Assembly: GCA_944332815.1 (NCBI GenBank)
Contig: CALVKQ010000001.1
Span: 49,697-113,696, forward strand
Length of the DNA stretch: 64,000 nucleotides
Source: an uncultured Clostridia bacterium
GTDB taxonomy: Bacteria; Bacillota; Clostridia; Christensenellales; CAG-917
Reading direction: 5' to 3'
Part shown: piece by piece, positions 5,676 through 63,200 of the stretch
Position numbering within the stretch: position 1 is the stretch's first letter
How the letters are laid out: each line of letters starts with the position of its first letter
The notes under the pieces: generated by a model
Databases searched by the model: none
Seen by the model: the letters and a program-made list of their open reading frames with translations, nothing else
Told to the model about the DNA's origin: nothing
Program-made: the position numbers and the translations under genes

Positions 5676-5949
5676 ATGCACCTCTCGACCCACGCGTCCG
5701 CGCGTGCTGCGCGCCTCCGCGCCGAATTATTCAACAATGATAGCACACCGCGCACCGAAACGCAACAAAACCGACGGACAAGAAAACGCCCTATCTCCGA
5801 TTTTGCATATAAGTGACAGTCCGCGCCCCCTCTTTCCGATTTTTTACAGCCGAAGAGAGGCATACCGGACCGGCATACTTCCCGTAAAAGCGCGCATACT
5901 GATGTCCGAACGGATGCGCAGCGCACCCGAAAAACAACGGGAGGTAAAG

Positions 5950-6096
5950 ATGAAACACATTTGCAAAACAGGCGAAAAGCCCGGCAGAGGAACTTACAGC
6001 TGCACCAATTGTCACACGGAGGTGAGCGTCGGCGACCGCGACAAACTCCCTCCCTGCCCTTCCTGCTCCAACAATGAGTTCACGGAAGTCCGATGA
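5950..6096 (+). CDS. Small zinc-ribbon protein (48 aa)
   Basis: GGGAGG SD 6 nt upstream. Two CxxC pairs are present (CTNC ... CPSC). Confidence 0.6.
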   Translation: MKHICKTGEKPGRGTYSCTNCHTEVSVGDRDKLPPCPSCSNNEFTEVR

Positions 6097-6274
6097 CGCG
6101 CCCTCGCCGAAACGCAGACCGACGAAAGTCCCTCCGGCGTCCGGCAAAAAAAGAGGACGGCCGCGCGCGCTTGACGGAGTGATCCCATAACTCTGAAACG
6201 CGAGCGCGGCGAGCGCTCCGCCGGGCGGAGAACGACGGCGCGGTACGCGGACCGCATTCTTCCGCCCGGGCAGC

Positions 6275-6306
6275 AAAAACGGACGTTGACAGCGTCCGTT
6301 TTTTTA
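6275..6306. terminator. Intrinsic terminator (bidirectional)
   Basis: aaaaACGGACG-ttgacag-CGTCCGTttttttt, between the convergent zinc-ribbon and MscS genes. Confidence 0.65.
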
Positions 6307-6388
6307 CGAGCAACGGGACGCTCGGCTTCCCGTTGCGCTTTTCTTTTTCTCATCGTTCACTCGGCGCAGCGCGATCGGATGCTTCCTC

Positions 6389-7252
6389 TCACTTCGCCTT
6401 CGTGATGACCTCTTTCTTGCTCTTTTTCGTGAGCGTTATGGCTTCGGGGCGCTCGCCCTCGTGCACGTCCACCTGCATATTCGGGGTGAGGAAACCCTCC
6501 TCTTTGAGAGCGTTGTAGACGTTCTCCGTCATGCGGTATTTCACCGTCCAGTAGTCCGCCGTGAGGGTGAAGCATTTCAGCTGCATTTTGACGCAATTCA
6601 TATCTTGACCGCTCATAACGACGCTGTAACCCTCGTCTTTTGCCAAAAGCGACTCGGCTTCCGCCACGCGTGAAACTATGTCGCGCACCACTGCCACATC
6701 GCTCCCCTTGTCCACCGCGATATCCACGACGACGCGGCGGAAACGGCACCCTTCATAGTTGATGATGGGGTTGTTCACCGCCTCGGAGTTGGGGACTATG
6801 ATGACGGTGTCGTCATCCGTTTTGAGGGTAGTGTTGAAGAGGTTTATCTGGGTGATCCTGCCCTCCTCGTCGGCGATCTGAACGTAGTCGTCCTTTTTGA
6901 AAGGCTTGTTGAAGATTATCATTATGCCGCTGGCAATGTTGCCCAGGCTGTCTTTGAGCGCGAGCCCTATCGCCACGCCGCAGGTGCCTATCACCGCGAT
7001 GATGGAAGCGGTATTGATGCCCATCGTCGCAAGCGCGGTTATGAGCACTATTATCTCCAGGACGATGTTGACCAGCGACACGATAAAACTGGACATCGCC
7101 TCGTCGCGTTTGGTGCGGCGAAGGATGCGTTTGAGCACCGCCTTGATGAGCCTGACGATGATCAGCCCGACGATGAGGATGATGATGCCGTAAAGGATGT
7201 TCAACCCGGCGTTCTTAAAGAAGTCTGCAACGCCCTGCCAAAATTCTTCCAT
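6389..7252 (-). CDS. Small-conductance mechanosensitive channel (MscS family)
   Basis: Three N-terminal TM helices. GLALKDSLGNIASG and the beta-domain pattern (ITQINLFNTTLKT) are typical of MscS. Start placed at MEEFWQ. Confidence 0.85.
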   Translation of the reverse strand: MEEFWQGVADFFKNAGLNILYGIIILIVGLIIVRLIKAVLKRILRRTKRDEAMSSFIVSLVNIVLEIIVLITALATMGINTASIIAVIGTCGVAIGLALKDSLGNIASGIMIIFNKPFKKDDYVQIADEEGRITQINLFNTTLKTDDDTVIIVPNSEAVNNPIINYEGCRFRRVVVDIAVDKGSDVAVVRDIVSRVAEAESLLAKDEGYSVVMSGQDMNCVKMQLKCFTLTADYWTVKYRMTENVYNALKEEGFLTPNMQVDVHEGERPEAITLTKKSKKEVITKAK

Positions 7253-14854: not shown

Positions 14855-14877
14855 ACTTTCTTCTCAAAAAACATTCA

Positions 14878-14915
14878 GAAACCACCGGTCGGCCCGGTGG
14901 TTTCGCTTTTTTTTT
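14878..14915 (+). terminator. Intrinsic terminator after the trk operon
   Basis: GAAACCACCGG-tcggc-CCGGTGGTTTC followed by a T9 run. Confidence 0.75.
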
Positions 14916-15127
14916 ACGCACGGCATCACGCTCTCCGCCTACCCTTGCATAACATCCATCGGTGCCCGTCCCGCAATGCGACATTTATATGCGGCGTCAT
15001 CCCGCTCTCGTCGCATTTCAGCACAAAACAGCATTTGATGATGTTTATTTAAGTGTTAAACTGTCCGATATGCAGAAATCCGCGCTCAGGCGGGTTTACT
15101 GTTCCTGTCGGATAGAGTTGCGCAAAA

Positions 15128-16111
15128 TTATGCGTTTGACACAAAACTATAAGTCTTATGCAATGGCGAATTCTGTCGCACCGTGAATCCGTCGGGCAAT
15201 ATTATGCTGCGGCGGTCGGAATGCGGCATATAACCGTTAAAGTGGAAACTCGCCTTTTTCAAATTGAATTGCTTGTCAATCACATACACTTCGTAGACAT
15301 CTATCATATGAGGCTGATGTGGGTCCGCAACGGAATAGCGCCGCATCGAACCGTAAGGCATACTTGTATTGCATTTTCTCGCCACGATGACTTCGCCGTC
15401 AAGACCGACAAGGCTCGGAATAATCTCCAACGCAGCCCTCGCGTACAAAAACGCATCCTTTGACGGCAAAAATCCCATCGGCTCTTCTGCACAAAAGCCT
15501 CTGCCCGTGTAGTCGGCGGAAGAACACGGCTCGTCATCGAGTTTTGATATCATATATCGGATAAAATCGCAATACGGCATATTTAGATTCAGAGCTTCGG
15601 TGTTGAGCGCCCTCATAAAATAATAGACGCTGCGCGTCGTTTTCCTCATATAAGCATAAACCGTACCGAGCAAAATATTTAACTCGCCGTAATTGTGCAA
15701 CCAGCCCACCCATTCTTCATTCGCCGCAAACGGATAAGCGGGCTTTTTCTTGTTGAGGTCGCTAATCCCGTGACAACAATACAATTCCGCCTTCGCCAGG
15801 TCCTTCTCAAAGCCGAACGAACCGAAAATATAAGCGAAAATCGCCCGCTTATATTCCAAGTATGACATCTCCTCTTCGTCTTTGCAGGGTATCGGAAGCC
15901 TTTCCGCCGTCAGCGTAAACCACGGATTGCGTTCCATCATTATCGCAAAGATATCCTCATCCATCTCCATCCCGCACGGACTTACATACTTTTTCACAGC
16001 CGCTCCTCCCGAACTTTTTTCTTTGTCCATCTCATATTTCTTTCGCAAAAAATTTGTGAACTGCTCAACCTCTTCCGTCAAATCGTAATCTTCCTGCCGT
16101 GATTCTTTCAT
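15128..16111 (-). CDS. Hypothetical protein (327 aa)
   Basis: GGGAGGAG SD before the ATG at 16111. Clean ORF inside the low-GC island. I recognise no family. Confidence 0.6.
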   Translation of the reverse strand: MKESRQEDYDLTEEVEQFTNFLRKKYEMDKEKSSGGAAVKKYVSPCGMEMDEDIFAIMMERNPWFTLTAERLPIPCKDEEEMSYLEYKRAIFAYIFGSFGFEKDLAKAELYCCHGISDLNKKKPAYPFAANEEWVGWLHNYGELNILLGTVYAYMRKTTRSVYYFMRALNTEALNLNMPYCDFIRYMISKLDDEPCSSADYTGRGFCAEEPMGFLPSKDAFLYARAALEIIPSLVGLDGEVIVARKCNTSMPYGSMRRYSVADPHQPHMIDVYEVYVIDKQFNLKKASFHFNGYMPHSDRRSIILPDGFTVRQNSPLHKTYSFVSNA

Positions 16112-16273
16112 TTTTTCTCCTCCCGTTTTTTCGTGCACCTTAAAACGTCGCATTTTCCATGCAACAAAAAATCATCCGACCGCCGTCACATCCCCTAACG
16201 CTGCATGATTTAAGATATCTCAAGGATTTCGAGGTCGTATTTTATCTAAAATCCGTCATGCTCAGAATAAAAT

Positions 16274-17038
16274 TCACATCACCTTTATCGTCACGGAACT
16301 CTCATTCACCTCTATGGCAAGTTTTTTGGCACAGCGTGTGCACGTGGTCGTAAATTCCGTCCCCGCCGAGATCTTCCCTATCTTGCTCCCACAACCGGGA
16401 CAATTTATGTAATAAAATGTCTGCCACTTCGGACCCGGCTTCGGAGCAGGCGCCGGAGCAGGCGTCGGAGCGGGCGTCGGAGCAGGCTTCGGAACGGGCT
16501 TCGGTAGGTCGGGTGTCGAAACGATCTTCAGATAGCCCTGCTCAAAGCATTGCGGCGATTGAAAGACTTTGACGCCTTCTTCACCTTCGAACCGTACACA
16601 TGCGCGCCCGTCGATGATGCTCTTCAAAATGCCGATCCCGTATTTTTCATGCCTGACTATACTCCCGACGGGCGGCTCCTTCGGCTTCGGAGGCTCCGGG
16701 ATGACGGGCGATCCGACTATCCTGTCACACCATGCACATATTTTATCTTCGTAAGTGTCCGCGTCCCGCCGCTCCCACTGACTGCACATATAGTATCGTC
16801 CGGCAAGATACCAAGTGACCCAATATCGTGCATAACCCGACGCATCGTAAACATCTTCCAAGTCGTCGACAAGCAGTGGGTATGCGATGTCGAACTTCCT
16901 TTTGCTGTAATCTTTATCATGCAACAGCTTGATAATGTCCGGCGTCAAATAGCCTTTGTTATACAACCACGAAAAAAGTCTTTTCACCCAATCCTGGGTT
17001 TTCTCTCCGCTTCGCTTTGTCGGATAGATCCTGTCCAT
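16274..17038 (-). CDS. Hypothetical protein: N-terminal domain, Pro-rich linkers, Tudor/DUF3553-like segment and C-terminal zinc ribbon
   Basis: AAGGAG SD. PEPPKPKEPP and PKPVPKPAPTPAPTPAPAPAPKP linkers. VRHEKYGIGIL...VRFEG resembles a small beta-barrel module. C-terminal CPGC...CTRC. Confidence 0.6.
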   Translation of the reverse strand: MDRIYPTKRSGEKTQDWVKRLFSWLYNKGYLTPDIIKLLHDKDYSKRKFDIAYPLLVDDLEDVYDASGYARYWVTWYLAGRYYMCSQWERRDADTYEDKICAWCDRIVGSPVIPEPPKPKEPPVGSIVRHEKYGIGILKSIIDGRACVRFEGEEGVKVFQSPQCFEQGYLKIVSTPDLPKPVPKPAPTPAPTPAPAPAPKPGPKWQTFYYINCPGCGSKIGKISAGTEFTTTCTRCAKKLAIEVNESSVTIKVM

Positions 17039-17279
17039 ATTATTACTCCTTGTTTTACATTTGTTTTATAAGCTTCGATTCATTCATTTATCTTTCGCGC
17101 AGGATCCGGCGATGGAGCTGCGTCTTTGTTTGATGTGCTGTTTTATTAGATCTGTCACGCGGGATATCCGCTTTGACGGCGATCGCGCTGTTTGCCGCTG
17201 CCTTTGGTGACTTTCACAAGGTTTGACCTGTCGTTCCGATGAGGGCTGCATAAATTGTTCGGCGCCCTCGAAGATCCCG

Positions 17280-17921
17280 TCACTTTTCGTCCGTTTCGAG
17301 AGAGGATTTCCAGTCCGAGCCTATGTCGGAGATGCCTATACGTGCCGAATACACCACATCGTTCAATACCCTACTGTACATTTTTCTGACGCCGCTGTGA
17401 CTGGGGGTAAAATTCGCTGCATGAGAGGCGCATATCCCGAGTTTTCCGGCTTCGGAAACGGCGTCCATATTTGCGCCGAGGAAAATAAACTGCCATGAGT
17501 ATTTCTCCTGCTGATGTGCAATCATCTCCCGCACTTTCTGCAAGCTGTAACTCATGCTTGAATTCTCCTCCCCGTCCGTCGTAATCACGAAAATGACGTG
17601 TTCGGGGCGTTCCTCTTCCGGGGTATTGCTCAGACGTACTCCCAAATTGTCTATCGTCCGTCCGACCGCGTCGAGAAGTGCCGTACCTCCGCGGGCAGAA
17701 TAGTCATCTTTCGTCAGCGGCTTAACCTCATCAAGGGCGACGTGCTCGTGCAGCACCTGATAACTTGTATCGAACAGAACTGTCGTGATATATGCCTCAC
17801 CCTCGATTTTTCTTTGTTTTTCGATAAATTCGTTGAACCCTCCTATTGTGTCCTCTTCAAGCGGTTTCATAGAGCCGCTGCGGTCCAGTACAAAGACCAT
17901 CTCCGTCAGATTTTTTTTCAT
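17280..17921 (-). CDS. von Willebrand factor type A (vWA) domain protein
   Basis: MIDAS motif DRSGSM near the N-terminus, later T and D(G) positions (GGTALLDA, ITTDGEEN), about 210 aa. Confidence 0.8.
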   Translation of the reverse strand: MKKNLTEMVFVLDRSGSMKPLEEDTIGGFNEFIEKQRKIEGEAYITTVLFDTSYQVLHEHVALDEVKPLTKDDYSARGGTALLDAVGRTIDNLGVRLSNTPEEERPEHVIFVITTDGEENSSMSYSLQKVREMIAHQQEKYSWQFIFLGANMDAVSEAGKLGICASHAANFTPSHSGVRKMYSRVLNDVVYSARIGISDIGSDWKSSLETDEK

Positions 17922-17968
17922 AAGACATTTCCTTGCATTTTATTTTACGTCTTTTTATCGACGCAATT

Positions 17969-18340
17969 TTAATTTTCTTCAAAGCGGTATATTCTGGTGA
18001 GAATCGGCAGCAGGCGCTCTGCCAAATCAACCCGCTTTTCGGATGACAATTCGCAGACCGTGTCTCCGCGGATTGCCCCGAGAATAAAGGCTATCTCCTC
18101 CGTCCCGAACTTTTTCCCTCCGAGATAACATCCCTTTTTTGTCTTTACTATCGGATATCCCATCTCGATGAGCGCTTCGATATTGCGTCCGACAGTCTTC
18201 CTGTCGCACGGCATCACGTCGTTAAGCCATTCGGCTATCTCCGTCTGCGTCATCGGGTGATTCCGGTCCGTATTCGATTCCAGAATCTTCAAAACGTACA
18301 GAATCAGATATTTTTTGCGGCTCAAAATCTTGTCCTCCAT
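17969..18340 (-). CDS. Winged-HTH transcriptional regulator (WYL-regulator-type N-terminal domain, no WYL domain)
   Basis: YLILYVLKILESNTDRNHPMTQTEIAEWL...DRKTVGRNIEAL matches the HTH_11-type N-terminus of WYL regulators. Only 123 aa from the internal ATG at 18340. Confidence 0.65.
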   Translation of the reverse strand: MEDKILSRKKYLILYVLKILESNTDRNHPMTQTEIAEWLNDVMPCDRKTVGRNIEALIEMGYPIVKTKKGCYLGGKKFGTEEIAFILGAIRGDTVCELSSEKRVDLAERLLPILTRIYRFEEN

Positions 18341-18414
18341 TTTAATTATAACAATGTGCTTGTACCAAAAATCGCCCACAATGTTTTTTTGCGAAAAATT
18401 AATTTCCGGACAGC

Positions 18415-18498
18415 CATATGCCGTTTGATTTATATTAATTTTCGCCGGATGAATTTTCGGCATTCTTTTCATATGCCGTTTGATATGTATTAATTTCG
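18415..18498. repeat. Two ~30-bp direct repeats in the divergent regulator intergenic region
   Basis: CATATGCCGTTTGATTTATATTAATTTTCG (18415-18444) and CATATGCCGTTTGATATGTATTAATTTCG (18470-18498), starts 55 bp apart. Confidence 0.7.
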
Positions 18499-18590
18499 AG
18501 CATACACGTTTATATGGCTGCGAGCAACCATATAAAAAGTATAATACTGTTACTGTTGCACATAACCATTCCAAAGGGGAGTGCGCAGCC

Positions 18591-18834
18591 GTGAACACCA
18601 TAAATAAAGCGCTCAAATTGCGCATCGAAGAACTGCTGAAAGAAAAAAAATATGACGAGATACCGACCGGCGATGAACAGCGGCATAACGCATTCTACCC
18701 TGAAAAACATTCTTCACGAAACAGTTTCGGACAGTCTGTTGTCAACAGTGATACTCATAGCCTCTGGTTTCAATATGACAGTGAGTGAATTTCTCGACAG
18801 TCCGTTGTTTTGCGAAGACAAGCCGGACATATAA
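18591..18834 (+). pseudogene. XRE-family HTH regulator interrupted by a frameshift in an A8 tract
   Basis: GTG start with an AAGGGGAG SD. Helix 1 (LRIEELLKEKK) is in one frame. The rest of the HTH (MTRYRPAMNSGITHSTLKNI...FNMTVSEFLD) is in the +1 frame, switching at A8 (18642-18649). Confidence 0.55.
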
Positions 18835-18846
18835 CGCAGAATACCG

Positions 18847-18883
18847 AAAACCGCACCGAAAGGTGCGGTCTTTTCGTTGTTTT
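18847..18883 (+). terminator. Intrinsic terminator
   Basis: ACCGCACC-gaaa-GGTGCGGT followed by cTTTTcgTTgTTTT. Confidence 0.7.
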
Positions 18884-18939
18884 AAGATGTAAGGACGAAT
18901 GCAATGCGGCAAAGAGCGTTCTCGCGCCGTGCCGCGTCT

Positions 18940-20577
18940 TTACAAAAACTTTTCCTCTTCCGTGTCGTAAAGCCCCGTGTCCAGCAGCCGCAGACGGGGT
19001 ATGACGGGGAGCGCAACGAATGAGAGAGTGGTGAACGCGTCCACGCCGGGATCCACCCCCATGGCGTGCGCGATGCGCTCCAACTCCTCCGTCCTTTTTG
19101 CCACTTCCTCCGCGCTGCCCGTCGCCATGAGCCCGAACGCAGGCATGGGGAGTTCCCCCACCGTCCTGCCGCCCGACGCGATGACGTAACCGCCGCCTAT
19201 CTCTTGCAGTCTTTTTAGGGCGAACGCCATATCCGCGGCATTGTCGCCTGCGCATACGGCGTTGTGCGAATCGTGAGATATAGAAGTGGCGATCGCGCCG
19301 CCCCTCATACCGTAGCCCACCAGCTTACACACGGCGAAATTCCCGTTCCGCCCATGCCTTTCCGCCGTCACGAGCAGGTCGCACGGCTCGCCTTTCCCGA
19401 CCTTTGTTTTCTCGGTGATTATCTGCCCTTGCACCAAAGAGAGCGCGACCCCGTCCAAGCGTCCGGGCACGGCTATATCCTCTGCGGATATCGTGTTGAG
19501 ATGCACAGAATTTTCAAAAACGGCATGTTTATCTTCATGTTCCGATGGTTTAACCGTGAGTTTTCCGTTTTTCGCCACGACGACGCCGTCCTTCAAAACG
19601 CAGACTACTTCCCCCGTATCCTCCTTGGCAACAACTATATCGGCGCGCAGTCCCTCCCCTATGTTCCCCCTGTCCGGCAAGCCGTAAAAGCGGCAGGGAG
19701 AATAGGAGGACATCCTTGCGACATCTCCCCATCCGAAGCCCTTTCGGAGGGCGAGGGAGACTATGTGCGAGATGTGTCCTTCGCGCGCTATGGTGGCAAG
19801 ATGCTTGTCGTCCGTACAGAAAGCGAAACGCCCCGTGTCCAGTCCCCTTTCCTTCACGCCGTCCAACAACTCGGAAGCGTTGCGCGCCGCGCTCCCTTCG
19901 CGGATATAGATGTTCATGCCCCTGTCGTAGCGCGCGAACATCTCTTCCTTGGTCGCGCACTCATGGTCGTTGCAAACGCCTGCGGCGACATAGGCGTCCA
20001 ACATACTTTCGGGCATACCGGCGGTGTGCCCGTCCACCGTCCTGCCGCAAAAGAGTGCGAGTTTTGCCGCCATGCGAGGCTCTCCGTGCGCCGCGTCGGC
20101 AAATCTCATCACCTCGCCCAGTCCCACCACCATGGGATCGTCCGCGAACTCTTTCATGTCATCCGCAGAGAACTCGCCCGCGCCGTTGGTGTCCAGCTCC
20201 GTGGCAGGCACGCTTGACGGCAGGCATATAAATATGTCCGCGCGCGAACGGCGGCACTCCTCCATGAAGACGCGCAGCCCGGGCGCGCCTGCGACATTGA
20301 CGACTTCGTGAGGGTCGGCGATGACGGTCGTGGTGCCGAAAGGCAGCACCGCGTCCCCGAACGCCGCAGGCAGCACCATGCCCGACTCTATGTGCACGTG
20401 AGCGTCCGCGAACCCTGCCGCGATCACCTTCCCCGTGCAGTCCAAGACCTCGTCCGCGCTTTCGTAGCCGCATCCGCCCACTCGCGCGATGCGCCCGTCC
20501 TCTACAAGCACGTCCGCAGAAAAAAGCACGGCACGTCTGCCGTCGGCGACCCTGCCGCCTTTTAAGAGCACTCTCAT
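18940..20577 (-). CDS. ade: Adenine deaminase
   Basis: 545 aa amidohydrolase-fold protein with GFADAHVHIESG and the two-domain length typical of Ade. Confidence 0.8.
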   Translation of the reverse strand: MRVLLKGGRVADGRRAVLFSADVLVEDGRIARVGGCGYESADEVLDCTGKVIAAGFADAHVHIESGMVLPAAFGDAVLPFGTTTVIADPHEVVNVAGAPGLRVFMEECRRSRADIFICLPSSVPATELDTNGAGEFSADDMKEFADDPMVVGLGEVMRFADAAHGEPRMAAKLALFCGRTVDGHTAGMPESMLDAYVAAGVCNDHECATKEEMFARYDRGMNIYIREGSAARNASELLDGVKERGLDTGRFAFCTDDKHLATIAREGHISHIVSLALRKGFGWGDVARMSSYSPCRFYGLPDRGNIGEGLRADIVVAKEDTGEVVCVLKDGVVVAKNGKLTVKPSEHEDKHAVFENSVHLNTISAEDIAVPGRLDGVALSLVQGQIITEKTKVGKGEPCDLLVTAERHGRNGNFAVCKLVGYGMRGGAIATSISHDSHNAVCAGDNAADMAFALKRLQEIGGGYVIASGGRTVGELPMPAFGLMATGSAEEVAKRTEELERIAHAMGVDPGVDAFTTLSFVALPVIPRLRLLDTGLYDTEEEKFL

Positions 20578-27039: not shown

Positions 27040-27169
27040 CCCTTTCGTCCGAACGGCTCACGGCGTCAAACGACAACGCCGTGGCATGCGCTCCCCGACC
27101 GCTGATCGAAGATCTTAGCCCGGGGATCCCGAATGTGGGTCATCTCAAAAACTAAATATTGTTGTATTC

Positions 27170-38044: not shown

Positions 38045-38377
38045 ATGGAATCCCTGCTGGACGAACGCACGACGGAACTCATCCGCGATTATGTTCCGCG
38101 CAACGCCACTCTGCATCTGCTCTCCGAGTTTTTCGGAGCGTGTGCGGACGCGACGCGCGCAAAGATAATCTGCGCCCTCTCCATCTCCGAGATGTGCGTG
38201 GGGGATATCGCGCGCGTGTTAGGGTTGAATCAGACCACCTGCTCCCACCAACTGCGGCTGCTCCGCGCGGCGGATATCGTGACCCAGCGCAGAGAAGGCA
38301 AGATCGTTTACTATTCCCTGAAAAACCGCAAGATCGAGGACGTCATGTACGCCGGCGTAAAATTCCTGGGGCTGTGA
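38045..38377 (+). CDS. ArsR/SmtB family metalloregulator
   Basis: Typical wHTH with ...TRAKIICAL...EMCVGDIA...L.QTTCSHQLRLLR... and YYSL, 110 aa. Confidence 0.85.
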   Translation: MESLLDERTTELIRDYVPRNATLHLLSEFFGACADATRAKIICALSISEMCVGDIARVLGLNQTTCSHQLRLLRAADIVTQRREGKIVYYSLKNRKIEDVMYAGVKFLGL

Positions 38378-38493
38378 CCCCGTACACTCCGCGCACATGT
38401 TCGGAGCGCGGTTGAGGTGTGCAAACAACACTTAAAATTTTAAGAGGCCTGTCCCCCATTAAACCTTACTCCCCCACGCACACTAGTTTAGAG

Positions 38494-38638
38494 TTTTGAA
38501 CAGTTGGGGACGGGCTTATTTTGTTCAATTTTTGAACACTTGGGGACGTGTTTGATTTGTTCAATTTTTGAACACTTGGGGACGTGTTTGATTTGTTCAA
38601 TTTTTGAACAAAATAAGCCCGTCCCCAACTGTTCAAAA
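38494..38638. repeat. Perfect 28-bp inverted repeat enclosing tandem 37-bp repeats
   Basis: 38494-38521 is the exact reverse complement of 38611-38638. Between the arms, TTGTTCAATTTTTGAACACTTGGGGACGTGTTTGA occurs twice in tandem, followed by a third TTGTTCAATTTTTGAACA. Confidence 0.9.
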
Positions 38639-38644
38639 TGAGTA

Positions 38645-39202
38645 ACGTCCCCTGACATGGGAGTATTGTACCCCCTCCTTCCCTTCGGGCTTTCCTCCCC
38701 CACTCGGAATAGAGGACAATCCTCCTAAAATTTAAGTGTTGTTTGCCCCCTTCCTTCGGGTTTCCCCCAAAATCGTTCCCCCTTAAAAGGGAACCCACCA
38801 TTTCGGGGGAAACCTTCGGCGCTCGCGCATGACTGCTTCCGAGGACGGCACCTTTACGGAGCCGCCATGTTATGCCGCTTGCAATGCACCCGCTGCGCGA
38901 AGAGAGTGGCGCATTGCCGGCGCACTATTCGTCTAGCGCTCGGCACTCACACGGTCGCCGCCTGTTGCGGCTCCGCTCCGAATAAGTGCGCGTCGTACAC
39001 GGAGTTGGACGCGCCGCGACTTGCAAACGTGGGCGATGCTCGCCCACGGTGCAAGTTTGGCTGAGCGGCGCGTTATTACGTCTTTGAACAGGGGCAAGTA
39101 AAAATCAAGCACGCTCCGAATAAGTGCACGTCGTGTACGGGGTATTTTTTCCGTCTTCGAATAAGGGGAAGGAAGGGTATAATACTCCCATGTCAGGGAC
39201 GT
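38645..39202. repeat. Mosaic structured non-coding element, copy 1 (paralog of 59297-59790)
   Basis: It shares collinear blocks with the second locus, including a 39-nt identity (38693-38731 = 59383-59421) and a 64-nt block (39010-39073). It is closed by an imperfect 29-nt inverted repeat (38645-38673 / 39175-39202). Confidence 0.7.
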
Positions 39203-52194: not shown

Positions 52195-52376
52195 ATACCC
52201 TCCTTTTTATCCCCCGCCCGAAGAGTCGTGGCTCTTCCGGTGGGGACACCGATTAGAACCCCAGTCTAAAATCAGAGATTTTCACCCGGGGACCCCGGGA
52301 TATTGGCTCCGATTTGAAATCGAAAATCAGCTCCGGGGAGCGATCTTGTCCTCGCCACGCCTTCGGGCGAAGGGAC

Positions 52377-58319: not shown

Positions 58320-58418
58320 CAGAGTTCGCCGCACCGGGATCCCCCGTATGCAAAAGGACCGAGGCCTTATACCCGGTCCTTTCCTGTTCTCCGACGAACG
58401 TGTGCGGTGTGCCGAAGT

Positions 58419-58868
58419 TTATTTGAAGTACTTGTTTTCAATGTCGGCGATCATGTCCAGCCTGCGCTGGTGTCTGCCGCCTTCGTACTCGGCGACGAAC
58501 CATGCCTTGACGATGTCGCTCGCCTCTTCGGGAGTCACCACTCTGCCCCCGAGCGCGATGATGTTGGCGTTGTTATGACGCTTGGTCATCTCCGCCATGA
58601 AGGTGTTGGTGACCACCGCCGCACGAATGCCTTTGACCTTGTTGGCGGAAATGGAGATGCCTATCCCCGTCCCACACATGAGCACGCCGGCGTCACACTC
58701 GCCCGACGCCACAGCTTCCGCGACTTTCTGCCCGTAGACGGGATAATCCACCGACTCGTCGGTGTAAGTGCCGAGGTCAACGACCTCCGCGCCAAGCTCT
58801 TCCAGCGTGCGGATGACCGCAGGTTTGAGGACGATGCCGCCGTGATCGCAACCGATCGCAATTTTCAT
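58419..58868 (-). CDS. rpiB: Ribose-5-phosphate isomerase B
   Basis: MKIAIGCDHGG...GVLMCGTGIGISISANK motifs, 149 aa. AAGGGGTG SD. Confidence 0.92.
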   Translation of the reverse strand: MKIAIGCDHGGIVLKPAVIRTLEELGAEVVDLGTYTDESVDYPVYGQKVAEAVASGECDAGVLMCGTGIGISISANKVKGIRAAVVTNTFMAEMTKRHNNANIIALGGRVVTPEEASDIVKAWFVAEYEGGRHQRRLDMIADIENKYFK

Positions 58869-59113
58869 AAATTCACCCCTTGAGTTTGATAAGTTAATTA
58901 TACTCCCCTCCTCTCCCGAGCGCAAGAGTCAGTTCTCGCGTTTTGTCGAAAATGCCCGGGACGTATCCGAGCGCGCTCCGAATAAGTGAACGTGAGGAAA
59001 AAAGTTTAATGGGGGCGTCCCCTGACAAGGCATACTTCCGTCTTCGAATGAGTGTGGAGTGTGTTCAAGCACACACGCTCATGCTTCACGTTATACCGAA
59101 ACAGGAACGCGTT

Positions 59114-59237
59114 GGGACACAACGGGGACGGGGTAAAGCCGGGGTACCCATCTTTGATGGGGCTTGGGGGCGCAAATGTCCAATGAGGGACAAAACGTGT
59201 CCCTAATTGGACATTTTTGCCCCGTCCCCGTTGTCCC
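59114..59237. repeat. Long imperfect hairpin homologous to the 38494-38638 inverted repeat
   Basis: GGGACACAACGGGGACGGGG (59114-59133) pairs with CCCCGTCCCCGTTGTCCC (59220-59237). An inner hairpin is AAATGTCCAAT..GGGACA/TGTCCC..AATTGGACATTT. The GGGGACGGG core is shared with region 1. Confidence 0.75.
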
Positions 59238-59296
59238 GGATAAAGCAAGAACACTCTAACTAGTGCACGTGTGGAATAAAGTTTAATAGGGGCTTG

Positions 59297-59790
59297 CGTC
59301 CCCTGACATGGAAGTATAGCTCCCCCTCCTCCCCGGGGACCCCACAAAATGCATGCATTTTGTGGGGAGCCCCATTCGGGACTCCTCCCCCACTCGGAAT
59401 AGAGGACAATCCTCCTAAAATGCGGAACTCACTTTTTCATAAAGGCGCAGGCGGTGCGCCTTTATGAAAACACCTCTTGAAAAAGTTTGTTTATCGCACT
59501 TACATAATCAAGCGGCGAACAGTGCTCACTGAACGTCGCTCGTGGGGCGAGGAGGGCGACTCGACGCGCACCGAGCCCGTGTCTACTTAATTTTTCGTCT
59601 AGCTTGCGAGGTCGCAGATCCGCGCCGCGACTTGCAAGCGTGGGCGAACATTCGCCCACGGTGCAAGTTTGGCTGAGCGGCGCGTAATTCCGTCTTCGAA
59701 CGAGTATAAGTTGAAATTAAGTACGCTCCGGATAAGTGCACGTGGAATATTAGGGTTTTTCCCCGTCTTCGAATAAGGTTTGGAAAAATA
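59297..59790. repeat. Mosaic structured non-coding element, copy 2 (paralog of 38645-39170)
   Basis: It has the same order and orientation of conserved blocks as copy 1 (59298, 59383-59421, 59594, 59621-59685, 59725-59778). The interior differs and includes a 15-bp hairpin at 59434-59470. Confidence 0.7.
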
Positions 59791-59807
59791 ATTTCAACGC
59801 CCTTGCC

Positions 59808-60233
59808 TTAAACGGCGATATTTGGATGAAGAGCGCGAAAGCCCCACATATCCGGACGCGCGGTGTACTTTTTTTGCCCCAGCTGAAAATCCTCTGATTT
59901 TCACCCGGGGACCCCGATGTACATAAGCGGCCGGAGATGTGGGGCTGACAAAGCTATTCGCCAAATAGCGGCGTTTAACTTGTTAAAGCGCGATATTTTC
60001 GCGTCAGACAAGGAAGAACCGCGTTCCACGGACGCGCGGTGTACTCCTTGTACATAAGCGGTCGGGAACGCGGTTCTGACGCAGTATCACGCAAAATAAC
60101 ACACTTATCTAAACGGCGATATTTGGATGAAATGCGCGAAAGAACCCTGCCGAGAGGCGGAACGTACATTGACGTACGTGAGCATCTACGGCAGGGACTC
60201 TGACAAAGCAGTTCGCCAAATAGCGCCGTTTAA
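59808..60233. repeat. Three tandem long hairpin elements directly after the surface-protein stop codon
   Basis: Units at 59808-59978 and 60110-60233 share basal arms TTAAACGGCGATATTTGG / CCAAATAGCGsCGTTTAA. A middle unit spans about 59985-60090. The last arm overlaps the TAA stop at 60230-60232. Confidence 0.8.
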
Positions 60234-63200
60234 CGGATGCCGATGATGGGAGGCACCCTCCTATTACTCACAGCAGCAGGCGCATCATAGTGCTGCGGCG
60301 CGATGTCCGCGGCTGCCTCTGCCGCTACGACGGGAGCGACGGGAGCGGCGGTGGGAGGCTGAGGCATGATGGAGTCGATGGGCTCGACCTCCACGGGGAT
60401 GGGATCGGGCGCGCGATGCAGTTTGACGAGCACGGCGATGAGGATGGCGATCGCTATGACGAGAACCAACACCGCCGCCGCAAGCGCGATGATCCACCAA
60501 TCAAACGCGGGCGCGGAGCTGTTGACGAACACGAGGTTGCCTATGTAGTTGGTCTTATACTCAATGGTGTTGCCGGTCACGGTGTAGGACTCGGGATCCA
60601 TCTTGACGAGCCTGCCGTCCGCGTTGACGTAGTACACGCTGAAACCGCTTGCCACGCCGTCGGGGATGCGCGCCGTTATCGTGACTTCGTTTGCGAGAGT
60701 CGTGACCGCACCGTTGCGGTTGTTGAGCTGGATGCGCAGTATGCCGCTGACGCCGAGCTCCTCGTCCTCGCCTGCGAAGGACTGCACGTTGCTCTGGACG
60801 ATCTGCCAGTAGCTTTCGCTGCTGTCGACGGTGGTATCGGACAGCTTGTAATCCACCGCAACGGGATCGCCGAAGTCGACGGTGACATAAGTCGTGCCAT
60901 CGGCGACGTAAGCGACCTTGGTTATCTGGACGGTCATCTTGCCGGAGCTGTTGCCGACCGCGACATAGTTGGGGTTGTTCGCCTTGATCTCGTAGTCGTA
61001 GACGCCGGGTCCGGTGACCGAACTCACTATCTTGCCGTTGAAGCGGTAGACGACGGTGAAGTTGCCGACGGACGACCCATCGGACGTCGTGAACTCTATC
61101 TTGTAATTGCCGCTCACGCCTGCGGTCGCATCGTGCACGTCGGAACCGGGCACAACGGTGACCGTGACGGGTTTGGCGCTGACGCGCAGCGCGGTGACGC
61201 GGTTGTCGATGTAGTAGTTCTCCACATACTCGTCGCCTATCATGATCTCGAGTATGTACGCGCCTGCGTTCTTCATAGCCGCGAGGGACTCATCGCCGAA
61301 GACGTAAACGAGTTCCGCATTGGCGAAGAAGCCTTCCACCACTTCGCCGGTGAGCGCGTCGGTCGCCAGGAGGTCGGTGGCAGGAACCAGCCTGTACTCC
61401 GTATTCTCATACGGGAAGACGGAGGACACACCGGGAGCGAGGGTCACGATGACGCTCCTCTGCGCTATCTCGAAGTTGCCGCTTGCGGTGTAAGTGCCGA
61501 CGTAATTGTATTTGTACTTCGAATCCGCCGCGATCTTTCTGGTGACGGTGATGCTCCACGAATAGTAGCCGGACTCCGTGGGCGCCGGGATGACGCTGCC
61601 GGTGATGGCATCCGACCACTCGAAGGTGTACTCATCGAGCGCCGTAAGTCCTTTCAAGACATCCTCCACAGTGAGTGCAACGGGAGAACCGTCGGCGGAG
61701 AGAGTGTACGGACGAGAGCCGTCGACGACGGGCTTGAACACGCTCGTATCCAAAGTGGGAAGCACGATGACGAGCTCGGGAGCGACTTCCGCGCCCGTGG
61801 CATCCACCAGCACCACCTCGTAGTTGGTGAGCGCGTCGGAGTCCATGGTGAGGAGATACTTGCCGCCGTTCAGATTTGCGGTGAGCTCGTAGTCGGTGCC
61901 GACCAACGCCGCGCCTGTGCCGTTCAGCTTATAGGAGTAAGCCGAGCGCAGCGCATTCATGAGCGTGGCAACGTTATCCTTGTCCGCAACGGAGTCAGAG
62001 CTGTACACATTGAAGGTGGGCACGGGCAGAGAGCCGACATAGTATTCGGTTTCAAACGCGCCGTCCGTGCCGTTGCCGGTCGCGACGACCTGCAATTTAG
62101 CGCGCGCTATGACGACGGTGCGTCCGGACTGTGCGGTGACGGTGAAGTTGGTCGCCGTGACGGAGGCTTTCGCTCCGCTGTACGAGCCTGCATCCACCTT
62201 GATGTTCCCGTTCGCGTCGAGGAAAGCGACGCCCGTCGAAGTGACGAGAGTTGCGGTGCCGACTGTGCCGTCGATGCGGACATACGCGCCGTCCGCCGCC
62301 TGCACGAAGGAGCCGTCGTCATTCCTGTTATAGAGTTTTTCCTGCGCAGGCGTGACAGCCGTCGCGTGGGCGAACGCCGCATTCCAGTCGGTGGCGAGGA
62401 TGTAGGCGTACCCTGCCTCGTCCACGATGACGGGTTTTCCGCCGACGGAATAGCTCACGCCGTAATCGAGCGTGCTGCCGTAAGTGCCGGTGATATCGCC
62501 TGCGTCAGCGGAAGTCAGCGCGACGCTCATATCCGCCCTGGTGACGGTGGCTGCACTCGAAACGGTGTAAATGCCGCCGGTGTTGAAGACGTAATTGCTG
62601 TTGCCGGTCGCGGAGTTGATGGCGAAGATGACATCCTGTCTGCCGACGCCGACGCCGCCGAGGGTGACGGTGAAGTCGGCTATGGTGAAGTCATCCGCAA
62701 GCTCGGGCGCGCCGGGCACGACGAGGACGAAGTCGCCGTCGCTGCCGTAGGTGAGCGAAGCGGACAGGTTCACGGTGTCGTCGAACTTCTTGACGAAAGC
62801 GGAACTGTCGAGGATATCCACTCTGAACGCGATCTGTATGGGATCGATCTTACCGGTCGCGGGGAAGTACGCCAATCCGGGGTACTCCTGCGCCACGGTG
62901 AACCCATCGGGAGCCGCGGTGAACGCGCTCTTTTCGGCGAGGTAGACCGTCCTGCCGTTCAGGGTGAACTCGGCGAGGAATTTTGCTCTGACGTCGTCGG
63001 GGATATCGACGGAGGCGTCGTTGCGGCTGTACGCGACGTAATCCGCGACGCCTTCCGCATCTATCTTATAGTTGACGGTGCCGTTCTGCCTGTACAGTTC
63101 GAAGCCGTAGACGGTGCCGTCCTTGGTCGCCGCCGCATCCGCGGAGTCGTAGCCTGCCGCGAGCACTCTGACGCCGTAGCTCTGCTTGACGAACTCATCC

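Follow-up and report, generated by a model that had tools for sequence, protein, structure and literature searches.

The question raised by this locus is whether two similar non-coding regions, some 20 kb apart in the window (the whole stretch of 64,000 nt that was analysed), are a pair of large structured RNAs or copies of an interspersed repeat. A preliminary description had named a collinear series of conserved blocks, and all of these were found again, to within 1 nt, in 38645-39202 (copy 1) and 59297-59790 (copy 2). The match between 38646-38683 and 59297-59334 is 87% over 38 nt, the 39-nt perfect identity is borne out in full (38693-38731 = 59383-59421, 39 of 39), the block ttcgtctagc is located at 38928 and 59594, and 39040-39166 matches 59652-59778 at 82% over 127 nt. 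This last match spans the 3′ half of a 64-nt hairpin and the tail. Two words also recur, GCTCCGAATAAGTG being seen 5 times (expected 0.46) and GTCCCCTGACAWGG 4 times (expected 0.58). The inverted repeat said to close copy 1 is real and is longer than the 29 nt claimed, joining 38650-38685 to 39163-39198 over 36 nt at 83% complementarity. On one side of the copy 1 gap is an ArsR-family gene (Pfam HTH_5), on the other a convergent ORF of 231 aa without a Pfam match, and, as claimed earlier, no credible ORF was seen in the gap. A small-protein reading was rejected, since the ORFs across the two copies lie in different frames and are unconserved. Both copies fold far better than shuffled sequence, with z = -4.55 for copy 1 and z = -7.01 for copy 2.

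A search with ROOL, GOLLD, OLE, HEARO, raiA and the other Rfam 15 models gave no match to a known family. At the Rfam gathering thresholds there were 0 hits in the whole window, and in the permissive E-value mode both regions and 7 related loci gave scattered chance hits that were inconsistent on the cores. One locus alone gave a weak hit to Clostridiales-2 in its REP-like tail (24 bits, the cut-off being 58.6), which was treated as chance; this motif is unmentioned in a 2017 paper that describes 224 candidate structured RNAs. When 945 flanking ORFs were compared all against all, ABC-transporter paralogues were the only multi-copy ORFs, and Pfam gave no recombinase or transposase among 10 window proteins. 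It should be noted that the transposase search covered the window and ~0.9 Mb of flanks, taken as 8-kb pieces about the matches, a scope in which a single-copy transposase gene elsewhere in the genome is easily missed. The flanks of the inspected loci hold ordinary housekeeping genes, and no partner gene, IscB or TnpB was found nearby. Viral contigs, phage records and plasmid records gave no family matches, and a phage or plasmid origin was rejected on this ground.

The view of the two copies as an isolated pair did not hold, as they belong to several dozen copies per genome. The 20-nt core motif was found in at least 80 stretches from 5 uncultured Clostridia MAGs and 1 Candidatus Limadaptatus MAG, part of its apparent invariance being due to its use as the search pattern. 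More than 30 copies came from the single MAG BRZ_MP__bin75. A second sequence pattern gave 26 more stretches in gut metagenomes, and the family profile gave 201 hits in 127 sequences. The same profile (nhmmer) aligns both window copies end to end and finds exactly 2 full-length members within the window. The element is ~350-450 nt long with a core of ~350 nt, and its anatomy consists of a 5′ arm with a C-rich segment, the core, and REP-like hairpin units on both sides. The core folds into a long-range helix that carries a bulged C, a central helix and several variable hairpins, with the 64-nt hairpin as its terminal element, and three subtypes (A, B and C) share this architecture. Copies differ in where optional hairpin modules are inserted, the tail arrays run from 1 to more than 5 REP-like units, and this modular build varies among copies and strains. 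The clusters are mosaics of cores, short REP-like hairpin repeats and other modules, and every core has such short hairpins beside it, their loops conserved and their stems covarying. The definition of REP, BIME and REPIN sequences (20-40-nt imperfect palindromes at gene 3′ ends) covers the flanking units only, the ~350-nt core being outside it.

The cluster at the ArsR locus is made up as follows.

38377 to 38460, minus strand: inverted fragments directly past the arsR stop codon (inverted-repeat search), one REP-like (38377-38415, pairing with 39105-39143) and the second an inverted copy of the 38708-38753 junction
38494 to 38638, unstranded: AT-rich hairpin of 145 nt with 36-nt tandem units and 45-nt arms, 93% complementary
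38634 to 39089, plus strand: family member 1 (nhmmer 131 bits, hmm positions 5-347; fold z -4.55)
38645 to 38731, plus strand: subtype-A 5′ module of member 1 (window self-comparison; alignment of ~90 copies), with the arm (38645-38685), a C-rich stretch and the 39-nt block (38693-38731)
38759 to 38814, plus strand: subtype-B helix GGTTTCCCCCAAAATCGT / ACCATTTCGGGGGAAACC enclosing a small hairpin (18 nt, 89% complementary)
38974 to 39005: additional REP-like unit of member 1
39010 to 39073, plus strand: 64-nt terminal hairpin (CGCGCCGCG ... GCGGCGCG) with a conserved asymmetric internal loop
39080 to 39166, plus strand: tail of member 1, REP-like hairpin units of ~35 nt (acgtctttgaacagg; gctccgaataagtgcacgtcgt; ccgtcttcgaataagg)
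39163 to 39202, minus strand: inverted arm, the right half of the copy 1 inverted repeat

Member 1 is chimeric: its 5′ module is of subtype A, its core of subtype B, and its 3′ hairpin is common to all subtypes. The interiors of the two copies had been called unrelated, which is too simple: copy 1 consists of the first 87 nt of subtype A joined to a subtype-B core, and its subtype-B interior recurs in L006, L008, L094, L052 and L068. The helix at 38759-38814 is present in the MFE fold of member 1, and an equal pairing is read from the sequence of the BRZ_V subtype-B copy in L052; we take this helix as the counterpart of the subtype-A long-range helix. The 64-nt terminal hairpin shows 5-6 pairs with compensatory changes (alignment A2). 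The inverted arm at 39163-39202 is what remains of a second member in the opposite orientation, and in strain L005 a complete minus-oriented subtype-A member ends exactly at this arm. REP-like tail units form tandem arrays of variable copy number in other members also. The AT-rich hairpin is a separate module of the cluster with a copy number that differs among strains, and Rfam gave only junk miRNA hits for it.

At the RpiB locus the parts are these.

58974 to 59296, plus strand: upstream part of cluster 2, where member 2 is preceded by a REP-like unit (59255-59296) and, further out, by a ~150-nt hairpin module (59096-59247), an isolated arm (59017-59056) and another REP-like unit (58974-59005)
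59283 to 59702, plus strand: family member 2, canonical subtype A (nhmmer 352 bits, hmm positions 3-348)
59335 to 59372, unstranded: small palindromic insert (ggggaccccacaaaatgcatgcattttgtggggagcccc)
59382 to 59393, plus strand: 5′ strand of the long-range helix (CTCCTCCCCCAC), with its partner at 59542-59554, GTGGGG[C]GAGGAG, bulged C
59434 to 59470, unstranded: optional perfect hairpin TTTTCATAAAGGCGCA / TGCGCCTTTATGAAAA (16 nt, 100% complementary)
59542 to 59615, plus strand: 3′ strand of the long-range helix (59542-59554), then the second helix, GCGACTCGACGCGC (59556-59569) / GCTTGCGAGGTCGC (59602-59615)
59621 to 59685, plus strand: 64-nt terminal hairpin of member 2
59690 to 59790, plus strand: tail of REP-like units
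59795 to 60233, plus strand: three tandem 'D' units of ~125-130 nt each, another structured repeat that closes cluster 2

Member 2 was aligned with 58 other distinct copies (alignment A1), and the long-range helix lies within its MFE fold (z -7.01). Its palindromic insert is missing from most copies, being found in L005, L033, L077 and L110. The perfect hairpin at 59434-59470 occurs in ~40% of the aligned subtype-A copies, with other short hairpins substituting for it elsewhere, and from its sequence it looks terminator-like on both strands. Other strains carry the ~150-nt upstream module at their ArsR locus, in one or the other orientation. Units similar to 'D' end the clusters in L052 and L063, and their copy number varies between strains; a hammerhead-like reading of these units was rejected, as Rfam support is absent and stem II is missing.

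The fold was tested on 34 sequences, mutually less than 90% identical, with a structure of 74 pairs. In this set 89.6% of the cells are paired, compared to 83.0% in shuffles, a value reached by 0 of 500. Doubly changed cells number 147 against 54.7±5.1 in the shuffles (0 of 500 reach 147), and 23 pairs carry double changes; the copies are related by descent, and the test is equally open to RNA and single-stranded DNA. In controls where the partner was slid by 1-3 columns, 37-51% of cells were paired and 7-27 were doubly changed. The long-range helix joins segments ~160 nt apart and its pairing is backed by compensatory changes (alignment A2: pair 131/377 is UA in 20 and CG in 14, pair 141/366 is AU in 12 and GC in 10). 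It is compensated between subtypes, subtype C extends it by three consecutive compensated pairs, and its extrahelical C is conserved. The second helix is unvaried in the 59 subtype-A copies, and six of its pairs are compensated in subtype C. The intuition of conserved islands with variable stems was right, in that the family has a multi-helix fold with compensatory changes. As to the structured-RNA reading, it is this fold that stood; action as an RNA would be part of a model.

Attempts to assign a strand by thermodynamics, wobble bias or tetraloop motifs gave contradictory or neutral outcomes. The helices are kept almost purely by Watson-Crick pairs, and in the helices common to both strands the wobble cells (plus-strand G.U 101, A.C 124) show no strand-specific excess. 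The minus strand is slightly better folded, being more stable in 51 of the 59 copies. This neutral wobble signal and the slightly better minus-strand fold fit a role of either strand, and fit a DNA-level role too. A UNCG-tetraloop reading of the TNCG motif after the C-rich run was indecisive, as the motif closes a stem of only 2-3 bp, and a kink-turn in the internal loop of the 64-nt hairpin was rejected, since one species has UU in place of the 3′ GA. Long unpaired segments are conserved as strongly as the helices, which points to a specific protein or tertiary partner, a mere structural roadblock being insufficient to explain them.

For 38 members both neighbouring genes were called, with a crude GC3-based caller, giving 14 convergent, 24 co-directional and 0 divergent placements; the members always adjoin a gene 3′ end. 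Among the 24 co-directional placements the element has the same orientation in 10 and the opposite in 14. Cross-species pairs at orthologous loci number 19, of which 11 have the same orientation and 8 are inverted, so that orientation relative to the neighbours and between orthologous loci is close to random. No promoter-like site was found in either window region, nor in 2 of 3 other members scanned, and the third had a single weak match, located in the arm. A consistent terminator was not found among the family members. The species that share positions differ by 8-30% in coding sequence. Positional orthologues are not mutual nearest relatives, and the nearest paralogue in the same genome is ~94% identical, and across genomes the value is 85-90%. 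Only 6 of 75 members have a paralogue at least 97% identical, and with so few near-identical copies there is no sign of recent bursts. The positional conservation across species could be compatible with a strong target-site specificity of a putative transposase.

The clusters differ greatly among strains, the gap at the ArsR locus ranging from 615 to 1291 bp and that at the RpiB locus from 563 to 1650 bp. The differences consist of inversions, deletions and swapped subtypes, and among the strains of one species, presence, absence and subtype differ at the same locus; the element region is 84-93% identical between strains, compared to 96-99% for the flanks. A clean inversion of ~900 bp is seen between L001 (4570-5508) and L002 (4528-5425), and also against L004, with breakpoints within inverted arms of 35-40 nt, of the same kind as the arm at 39163-39202. 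This segment occurs both ways round in strains with an identical ArsR protein, and the inverted segments are 81-85% identical. On the whole an inverted arm lies downstream within 1.3 kb in 6 of 88 members (those with at least 800 nt of downstream sequence), and a terminal inverted repeat was rejected as a family feature on that count. Only one usable pair of empty and filled sites was available, L096 (empty) against the window (filled) around member 2. In the filled site the direct REP-like units agtgcacgtgtggaata / agtgcacgtggaatat flank member 2, and in L096 there is a single hybrid unit. Judged from its sequence, this junction looks like recombination between direct REP-like repeats and not like a short target-site duplication, although in this single pair an insertion and a deletion by recombination would look alike; no target-site duplication could be demonstrated.

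Read against the observed family size, anatomy, covarying fold, placement and rearrangements between strains and species, our best reading is that the family is closer to the mosaic repeats known from bacteria than to a single new RNA gene. We give about an even chance to its being a lineage-specific, persistent and structured mosaic repeat that works like BOX, BIME or REPIN. Both halves of the preliminary interpretation, which saw either a structured RNA or a mosaic repeat, are partly supported, the family being a structured element and also an interspersed mosaic repeat. On the mosaic side, the many copies and the mosaic, strain-rearranged clusters were found, and a transposase-bearing master copy was not seen among the ORFs next to members. 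The structured-RNA half had been expected to fail if many copies turned up with target-site duplications next to such a master element; the copies are many, but neither the master element nor a target-site duplication was seen.

One rival reading is of trans-acting genes. It holds that the members are a multi-copy family of true ncRNA genes of several subtypes, whose RNA would work in trans with a protein partner, for example as a scaffold or guide RNA, and we regard it as rather improbable. The architecture held by compensatory change across subtypes A, B and C, the strongly conserved unpaired segments, the loci conserved across species and the missing match to a known Rfam family would all be in keeping with it, as would the hairpin inserts at variable positions, which many large RNAs have. 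Yet a promoter-like site is absent in 4 of the 5 regions scanned, with one weak match in the fifth, there is no consistent terminator and no partner gene nearby, the orientation is random, the wobble pairs are without a strand signal, and strains of the same species vary in presence, absence and subtype, with the element less alike (84-93%) than its flanks (96-99%). Strict Watson-Crick helices with no strand-specific wobble excess, as one expects of DNA, speak for a REPIN- or PATE-like non-autonomous element, copied as folded ssDNA by a single-copy HUH/Y1 transposase (RAYT or IS200/IS605-type) encoded elsewhere. We hold this to be unlikely. The enzyme would recognise the conserved fold and loops, and the flanking REP-like hairpins, always beside the cores with their conserved loops and covarying stems, would belong to the same system; the conserved extrahelical C of the long-range helix favours it, and the missing terminal inverted repeats suit IS200/IS605-type ends. 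HUH/Y1-type enzymes (RAYT, IS200/IS605) are known to read hairpins of 20-40 nt, however, and the ~350-nt multi-helix junction is far above this size. The family keeps to one lineage, gave no matches in phages or plasmids and is present at orthologous sites; REPIN populations are described in like terms, as inherited vertically and compared at orthologous positions (bioRxiv 10.1101/2024.10.14.618302; PMC8049555). Against this, such a transposase was not seen in the ~0.9 Mb of flanks and the window, where a single-copy gene is easily missed, and the 6 of 75 members with a near-identical paralogue give no sign of a recent burst.

The readings built on inverted repeats are far weaker. A classical MITE, that is an IS-derived small non-autonomous DNA transposon with terminal inverted repeats and target-site duplications, is already largely refuted and scarcely credible to us. 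The 36-nt imperfect inverted repeat does bracket copy 1, but its right arm belongs to the truncated neighbouring member and few members (6 of 88) have an inverted arm within 1.3 kb. The many copies of 350-450 bp and the presence or absence between strains would suit a MITE; the flanking ORFs (945) gave no transposase-bearing relative, though, the positions are common to several species, and the empty site in L096 looks like a collapse of long direct REP-like repeats to one hybrid unit. An inverton, in which the arms are recombinase sites and the flip of the segment alters neighbour expression, we judge very improbable, even with a ~900-bp segment found in both orientations between inverted arms in strains with an identical ArsR protein and with orientation differing at 8 of 19 orthologous loci between species. 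No promoter-like site was found inside the segment, the neighbours converge on it and leave the flip without an obvious target, most members lack a paired inverted arm, and no invertase gene was found adjacent. The 81-85% identity of the inverted segments indicates old or recombinational events and not rapid switching.

If the family is a mosaic repeat of the BOX, BIME or REPIN kind, selection on its fold would act on single strands, most likely on RNA that arises by read-through from the flanking genes, because the members are without a promoter of their own. As members lie in either orientation and their helices are almost purely Watson-Crick, either strand could form an equivalent barrier, which could terminate or insulate convergent transcription and protect mRNA 3′ ends, in parallel to what is thought for the REP/BIME, ERIC and BOX repeats. 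The family would stay at fixed intergenic sites and be homogenised or replaced through recombination or gene conversion among copies, with inverted arms leading to inversions and direct REP-like units to deletions or insertions, and frequent cut-and-paste transposition would be unnecessary to explain the pattern. A more speculative view, which we put forward as doubtful, is that the core represents a new class of structured nucleic acid, large and multi-copy, with conserved loops that would be read by a putative protein encoded elsewhere. This reader might be a recombinase or transposase for which the folded element serves as scaffold or guide, and which would place, invert and homogenise the clusters at fixed REP-like target sites. 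A dedicated protein reading the fold would make the family define a new element-enzyme system, and, if that reader is such a recombinase or transposase, gut Clostridia would have a new kind of mobile system, one dependent on structure and possibly assisted by RNA.

Good descriptions of structured interspersed repeats exist for Proteobacteria, pneumococci, Neisseria and the Bacillus cereus group; for uncultured gut Clostridia we know of none. The family is unusual among such repeats in its large multi-helix unit with long-range pairing and conserved loops, in its diversified subtypes that retain the architecture, and in intergenic sites that are constant across species with orientation and sequence reshuffled. 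The clusters make intergenic regions differ by more than 1 kb between strains, and they mark sites that hold unrelated gene cargo in some strains. This length variation and the cargo sites bear on metagenome assembly, strain typing and the annotation of 'candidate structured RNAs' in gut metagenomes.

Among the known systems, the large RNAs ROOL, GOLLD, OLE, raiA and HEARO/omega RNA are similar in size range (350-450 nt) and in having conserved islands between variable hairpins, and HEARO is likewise multi-copy per genome. The family differs from ROOL, GOLLD, OLE, raiA and HEARO in giving no covariance-model match even at permissive thresholds, and from HEARO, omega RNA and the IS110 bridge RNA in having no adjacent IscB, TnpB, IS110 transposase or other ORF; ORF-less derivatives of the omega RNA, HEARO or IS110 type, mobilised in trans, may be compatible with such ordinary flanks. 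Unlike the large RNAs of Firmicutes, it has dozens of copies in either orientation with no promoter found. The NIMEs of Neisseria and the bcr repeats of the Bacillus cereus group are intergenic arrays of 50-400-bp units with short bounding repeats; they are recombination hot spots, and some bcr families have compensatory changes that suggest RNA structure. They have no sequence relationship to our family, and to our knowledge its size, long-range helix and subtype structure have no described counterpart among repeats of this type. BOX of Streptococcus pneumoniae (with RUP and SPRITE) is, like our family, an interspersed intergenic repeat of one narrow lineage; both are modular, the end modules being conserved and the internal or tail units varying in number, and both have extensive predicted structure. 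BOX elements are co-transcribed with neighbouring genes, turn over slowly and have no transposase of their own (PMC3049150). There is again no sequence relationship, and, unlike the BOX string of 45-60-nt boxes, the core here is one ~350-nt multi-helix unit with long-range pairing, has three deep subtypes that hold the architecture via compensation, and occupies orthologous loci across species. REPINs, too, are restricted to lineages, inherited vertically and compared at orthologous positions (PMC3337134, PMC8049555, bioRxiv 10.1101/2024.10.14.618302). Our family differs from the REPIN-RAYT system in its host, a Firmicute (Clostridia), and in that no RAYT was found in the flanks, and from REPs in a main unit that is ~10 times larger and is not a simple palindrome. 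The flanking units, on the other hand, are like the REPs of Proteobacteria, being ~35 nt long with covarying stems, in tandem or inverted clusters at gene 3′ ends. BIMEs are mosaics of several motifs, and so are the clusters described here.

Direct reading of both regions located all blocks of the preliminary description to within 1 nt. The arm, which starts the 5′ module, matches at 87% (38646-38683 against 59297-59334), a 39-nt block is perfectly identical (38693-38731 and 59383-59421), the motif ttcgtctagc is present at 38928 and 59594, and a 127-nt stretch spanning the tail and the 3′ half of the 64-nt hairpin is 82% identical (39040-39166 against 59652-59778). The short motifs are much commoner in the window than in shuffled sequence, and both copies fold far better than dinucleotide shuffles (z = -4.6 for copy 1 and -7.0 for copy 2). 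The feature is genuine and non-random. On one side of the gap of copy 1 (the ArsR locus) lies an ArsR-family gene (Pfam HTH_5), on the other a convergent 231-aa ORF; as had been claimed, no believable coding frame was found in this gap. The description of a pair of paralogous elements holds, except that its scope is too small, as these belong to a family of many copies.

When exact matches to a 20-nt segment of the 39-nt block were sought, with each species represented by one genome, at least 80 stretches were obtained. Among the matches listed, all but one chance hit belong to six MAGs, of which five are from uncultured Clostridia and one is a Candidatus Limadaptatus (Eubacteriales incertae sedis), and BRZ_MP__bin75 alone accounts for more than 30 copies of those listed. 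The chance hit (1195-1214 of L057, a Patescibacteria MAG) is the sole listed match beyond the Clostridia clade and was rejected as a family copy because it lies in unrelated sequence without flanking similarity. It may be noted that loci L011-L090 were found with the 20-nt block as search pattern, which accounts for part of its invariance there; the block is variable in the metagenome loci found by the other pattern. This independent mid-element pattern gave 26 additional stretches in gut metagenomes, and the family patterns had zero matches in viral contigs, phage records and plasmid records. A profile built on 59 distinct copies gave 201 hits in the 127 sequences searched, and found exactly two full-length members in the 64-kb window, at 38634-39089 (131 bits) and 59283-59702 (352 bits). 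A metagenome contig (L091; ENA ERZ28614680, scaffold_1168) that is 100% identical to the window across 58800-60400 is probably the window's own strain or source assembly.

On aligning the family copies, a consistent build of 13 parts in fixed order was obtained:

Part 1: REP-like hairpin unit (about 35 nt), followed by an A/T-rich spacer
Part 2: arm, ACGTCCYCTGACAKGG, with a small local hairpin
Part 3: C-rich run
Part 4: block TCCTCCCCCACTCGGAATAG
Part 5: variable hairpin
Part 6: AAAATGCGG
Part 7: optional hairpin module
Part 8: TCGCAC...CACATAATCAAGCGG
Part 9: variable hairpin
Part 10: GTGGGG[C]GAGGAGGGCGACTCGACGCGCAC
Part 11: GTGTCTACTTAA...CGTCTAGCTTGCGAGGTCGC
Part 12: 64-nt hairpin CGCGCCGCG...GCGGCGCG
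Part 13: tandem array of REP-like units, variable in number (ccgtctYcgaa..., gctccgaataagtg...)

At least three subtypes exist: A is canonical and includes copy 2, C has the architecture of A with many substitutions, and B differs in its interior and has the 3′ domain common to the others. Copy 1 is a chimera of a subtype-A 5′ module (first 87 nt) and a subtype-B core. The inverted repeat said to close copy 1 is present (38650-38685 against 39163-39198; 36 nt, 83% complementarity) but was over-interpreted, its right arm being the stub of an adjoining, oppositely oriented member; this position is exactly where, in strain L005, a complete member of subtype A in minus orientation ends.

RNAalifold on the 59 subtype-A copies predicted three main features, namely a long-range helix of CTCCTCCCCC(AC) with (GT)GGGG[C]GAGGAG (59382-59393 and 59542-59554 in copy 2, about 160 nt apart), an invariant central helix (GCGACTCGACGCGC / GCTTGCGAGGTCGC) and a terminal hairpin. 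Covariation was assessed on 34 sequences chosen for diversity (pairwise less than 90% identical) with a curated structure of 74 pairs. Here 89.6% of cells were paired as against 83.0% in shuffles, and 147 cells were doubly changed as against 54.7±5.1, each value being reached by 0 of 500 shuffles; double changes are seen at 23 pairs. Because the copies share descent, these counts are not independent events. Sliding one partner by 1-3 columns left 37-51% paired and only 7-27 doubly changed cells. The ends of the long-range helix show UA/CG and AU/GC switches, and subtype C adds three further consecutive compensated pairs there, with the bulged C retained. In the central helix, six pairs are compensated in subtype C. 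One lineage changes TGCGG/TCGCA to TGCAG/TTGCA, and five or six pairs covary in the terminal hairpin. The sequence comparison thus argues for a real multi-helix fold.

Folding slightly favours the minus strand (alifold -75 against -66 kcal/mol; lower MFE in 51 of 59 copies). An RNA made from one strand is expected to show a wobble excess on that strand; such an excess is absent on either strand, the helices common to both having 101 G.U cells in the plus-strand reading and 124 A.C cells. A scan for sigma-70-like promoters found none in the two window regions; of three further members, two likewise had none and one had a single weak match in the arm. Rfam gave no family match, permissive thresholds included. 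Both neighbours could be called for 38 members with a crude GC3-based caller, placing 14 between convergent genes, 24 between co-directional genes (10 in the orientation of the genes, 14 opposite) and none between divergent genes. The flanking genes are housekeeping, and comparison of flanking proteins found no recurrent protein adjoining members.

Orthologous loci are occupied in 19 cross-species pairs (same orientation in 11, inverted in 8), with coding flanks 70-92% identical between the species compared. Both window loci are filled in at least one other species (BRZ_V at both; BRZ_MP also at the ArsR locus), and 5 of 17 sampled BRZ_V loci are also sampled BRZ_MP loci against a chance estimate of about 0.35. 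Positional orthologues are not mutually closest relatives (ranks 1 to 16 out of 12-20); the nearest paralogue in the own genome is about 94% identical and the nearest copy in another genome 85-90%. We read this pattern as copies at fixed sites evolving in concert or being replaced repeatedly. The intergenic region 5693-6389 carries members in two other species (L033, L063) and none in the window, which instead has a zinc-ribbon-like ORF of 48 codons (5950-6096) and a terminator-like hairpin at about 6277-6306.

Within the species, contigs encoding the identical ArsR or RpiB protein were compared as strains. Gap length ranges over 615-1291 bp at the ArsR locus and 563-1650 bp at the RpiB locus (the gap of copy 2), with cluster modules present, absent, swapped or inverted, and the element region is 84-93% identical as against 96-99% for the flanks. 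Between L001 and L002/L004 a segment of about 900 bp is cleanly inverted, with breakpoints inside inverted arms, and L096 lacks member 2 and has a single hybrid REP-like unit in place of the two direct units around it in the window. The cluster may lie at the edge of a variable island or of a hot spot for integration, since unrelated genes follow it in L007 (5138-8333) and L010 (5371-8333), whose ArsR protein is identical to the window's. Those of L010 have a defence-like look (AAA_15/AAA_21 ATPase, then a 167-aa protein); in L007 they encode a 395-aa protein and an S8 peptidase. Also, the gap between rpiB and a QueH-family gene (58320-58418; L091-L100) is 100 to about 275 bp depending on strain.

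Other repeat modules accompany the family in the window:

59795-60233: three tandem "D" units of about 125-130 nt, a structured repeat distinct from the family
59335-59372, 27111-27131, 52277-52297, 59896-59916: small palindromic ...GGGGACCCC... modules
38494-38638: AT-rich hairpin of 145 nt, nearly perfect and composed of 36-nt tandem units (TTTTGAACAnTTGGGGACG...)
59096-59247: nested hairpin module of about 150 nt, acaacggggacggggtaaa ... tttgccccgtccccgttgt

Each D unit is closed by a long stem (TAAACGGCGATATTTGG ... CCAAATAGCGCCGTTTAA) and contains a long inner hairpin and the motifs GGATGAA..GCGCGAAAG and CTGACAAAGC; unit number is strain-dependent, Rfam gave no hit, and single similar units terminate clusters in other species (L052, L063, L064). 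The palindromic modules (ggggaccccacaaaat..attttgtggggagcccc; ccccaccgaaa..tttcggtggggacccc) are also seen in L019, L081, L100, L120, L121, L123 and L124. Inserted at positions that differ among family members, and at further sites of the window, they resemble a family of their own, made up of tiny hairpins prone to insertion. The unit number of the AT-rich hairpin depends on strain, and its Rfam miRNA-precursor matches were dismissed as spurious. At the ArsR locus, other strains (L001-L005, L007, L010) have the nested module, in one orientation or the other. In a separate stretch of about 4 kb (14855-18940) the GC3-based caller found no typical gene; its four minus-strand ORFs (15128-16153, 16274-17038, 17280-17921, 17969-18625) have no Pfam match and may be foreign or fast-evolving genes.

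The elements would be transcribed through read-through; lying in either orientation where convergent or tandem transcription units end, they could act as structural barriers. Inversions would be mediated by the inverted arms and deletions or insertions by the direct REP-like units, with gene conversion homogenising the copies. This account of barriers and recombination leaves unexplained the strong conservation of long unpaired segments and of the bulged C, which suggest a specific partner. These features leave two other readings plausible: an unseen HUH transposase may mobilise the elements as ssDNA in a REPIN-like system, or the elements may belong to a new element-protein system. There is little support for a classical MITE: an inverted arm lies downstream in only 6 of 88 members, therefore terminal inverted repeats are not a family property. 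A regulatory inverton is likewise poorly supported.

The evidence fits a persistent, lineage-specific structured mosaic repeat working like BOX, REP/BIME, REPIN or NIME, and we file the family with this known class of structured interspersed intergenic repeats. Finding a dedicated protein partner, or else a defined RNA product, would make it of high interest. What is distinctive among such repeats is its size, the covariation-supported multi-helix fold, the subtypes, and positional persistence with random orientation. BOX elements are reported to be co-transcribed with neighbouring genes and to exert secondary-structure effects (PMC3049150), and REPINs are described as vertically inherited and as located at orthologous positions (PMC8049555; bioRxiv 10.1101/2024.10.14.618302). 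Like these systems, the family is interspersed and modular, occurs in intergenic 3′ regions only, has much secondary structure, turns over slowly and is reshaped via recombination among its own repeats.
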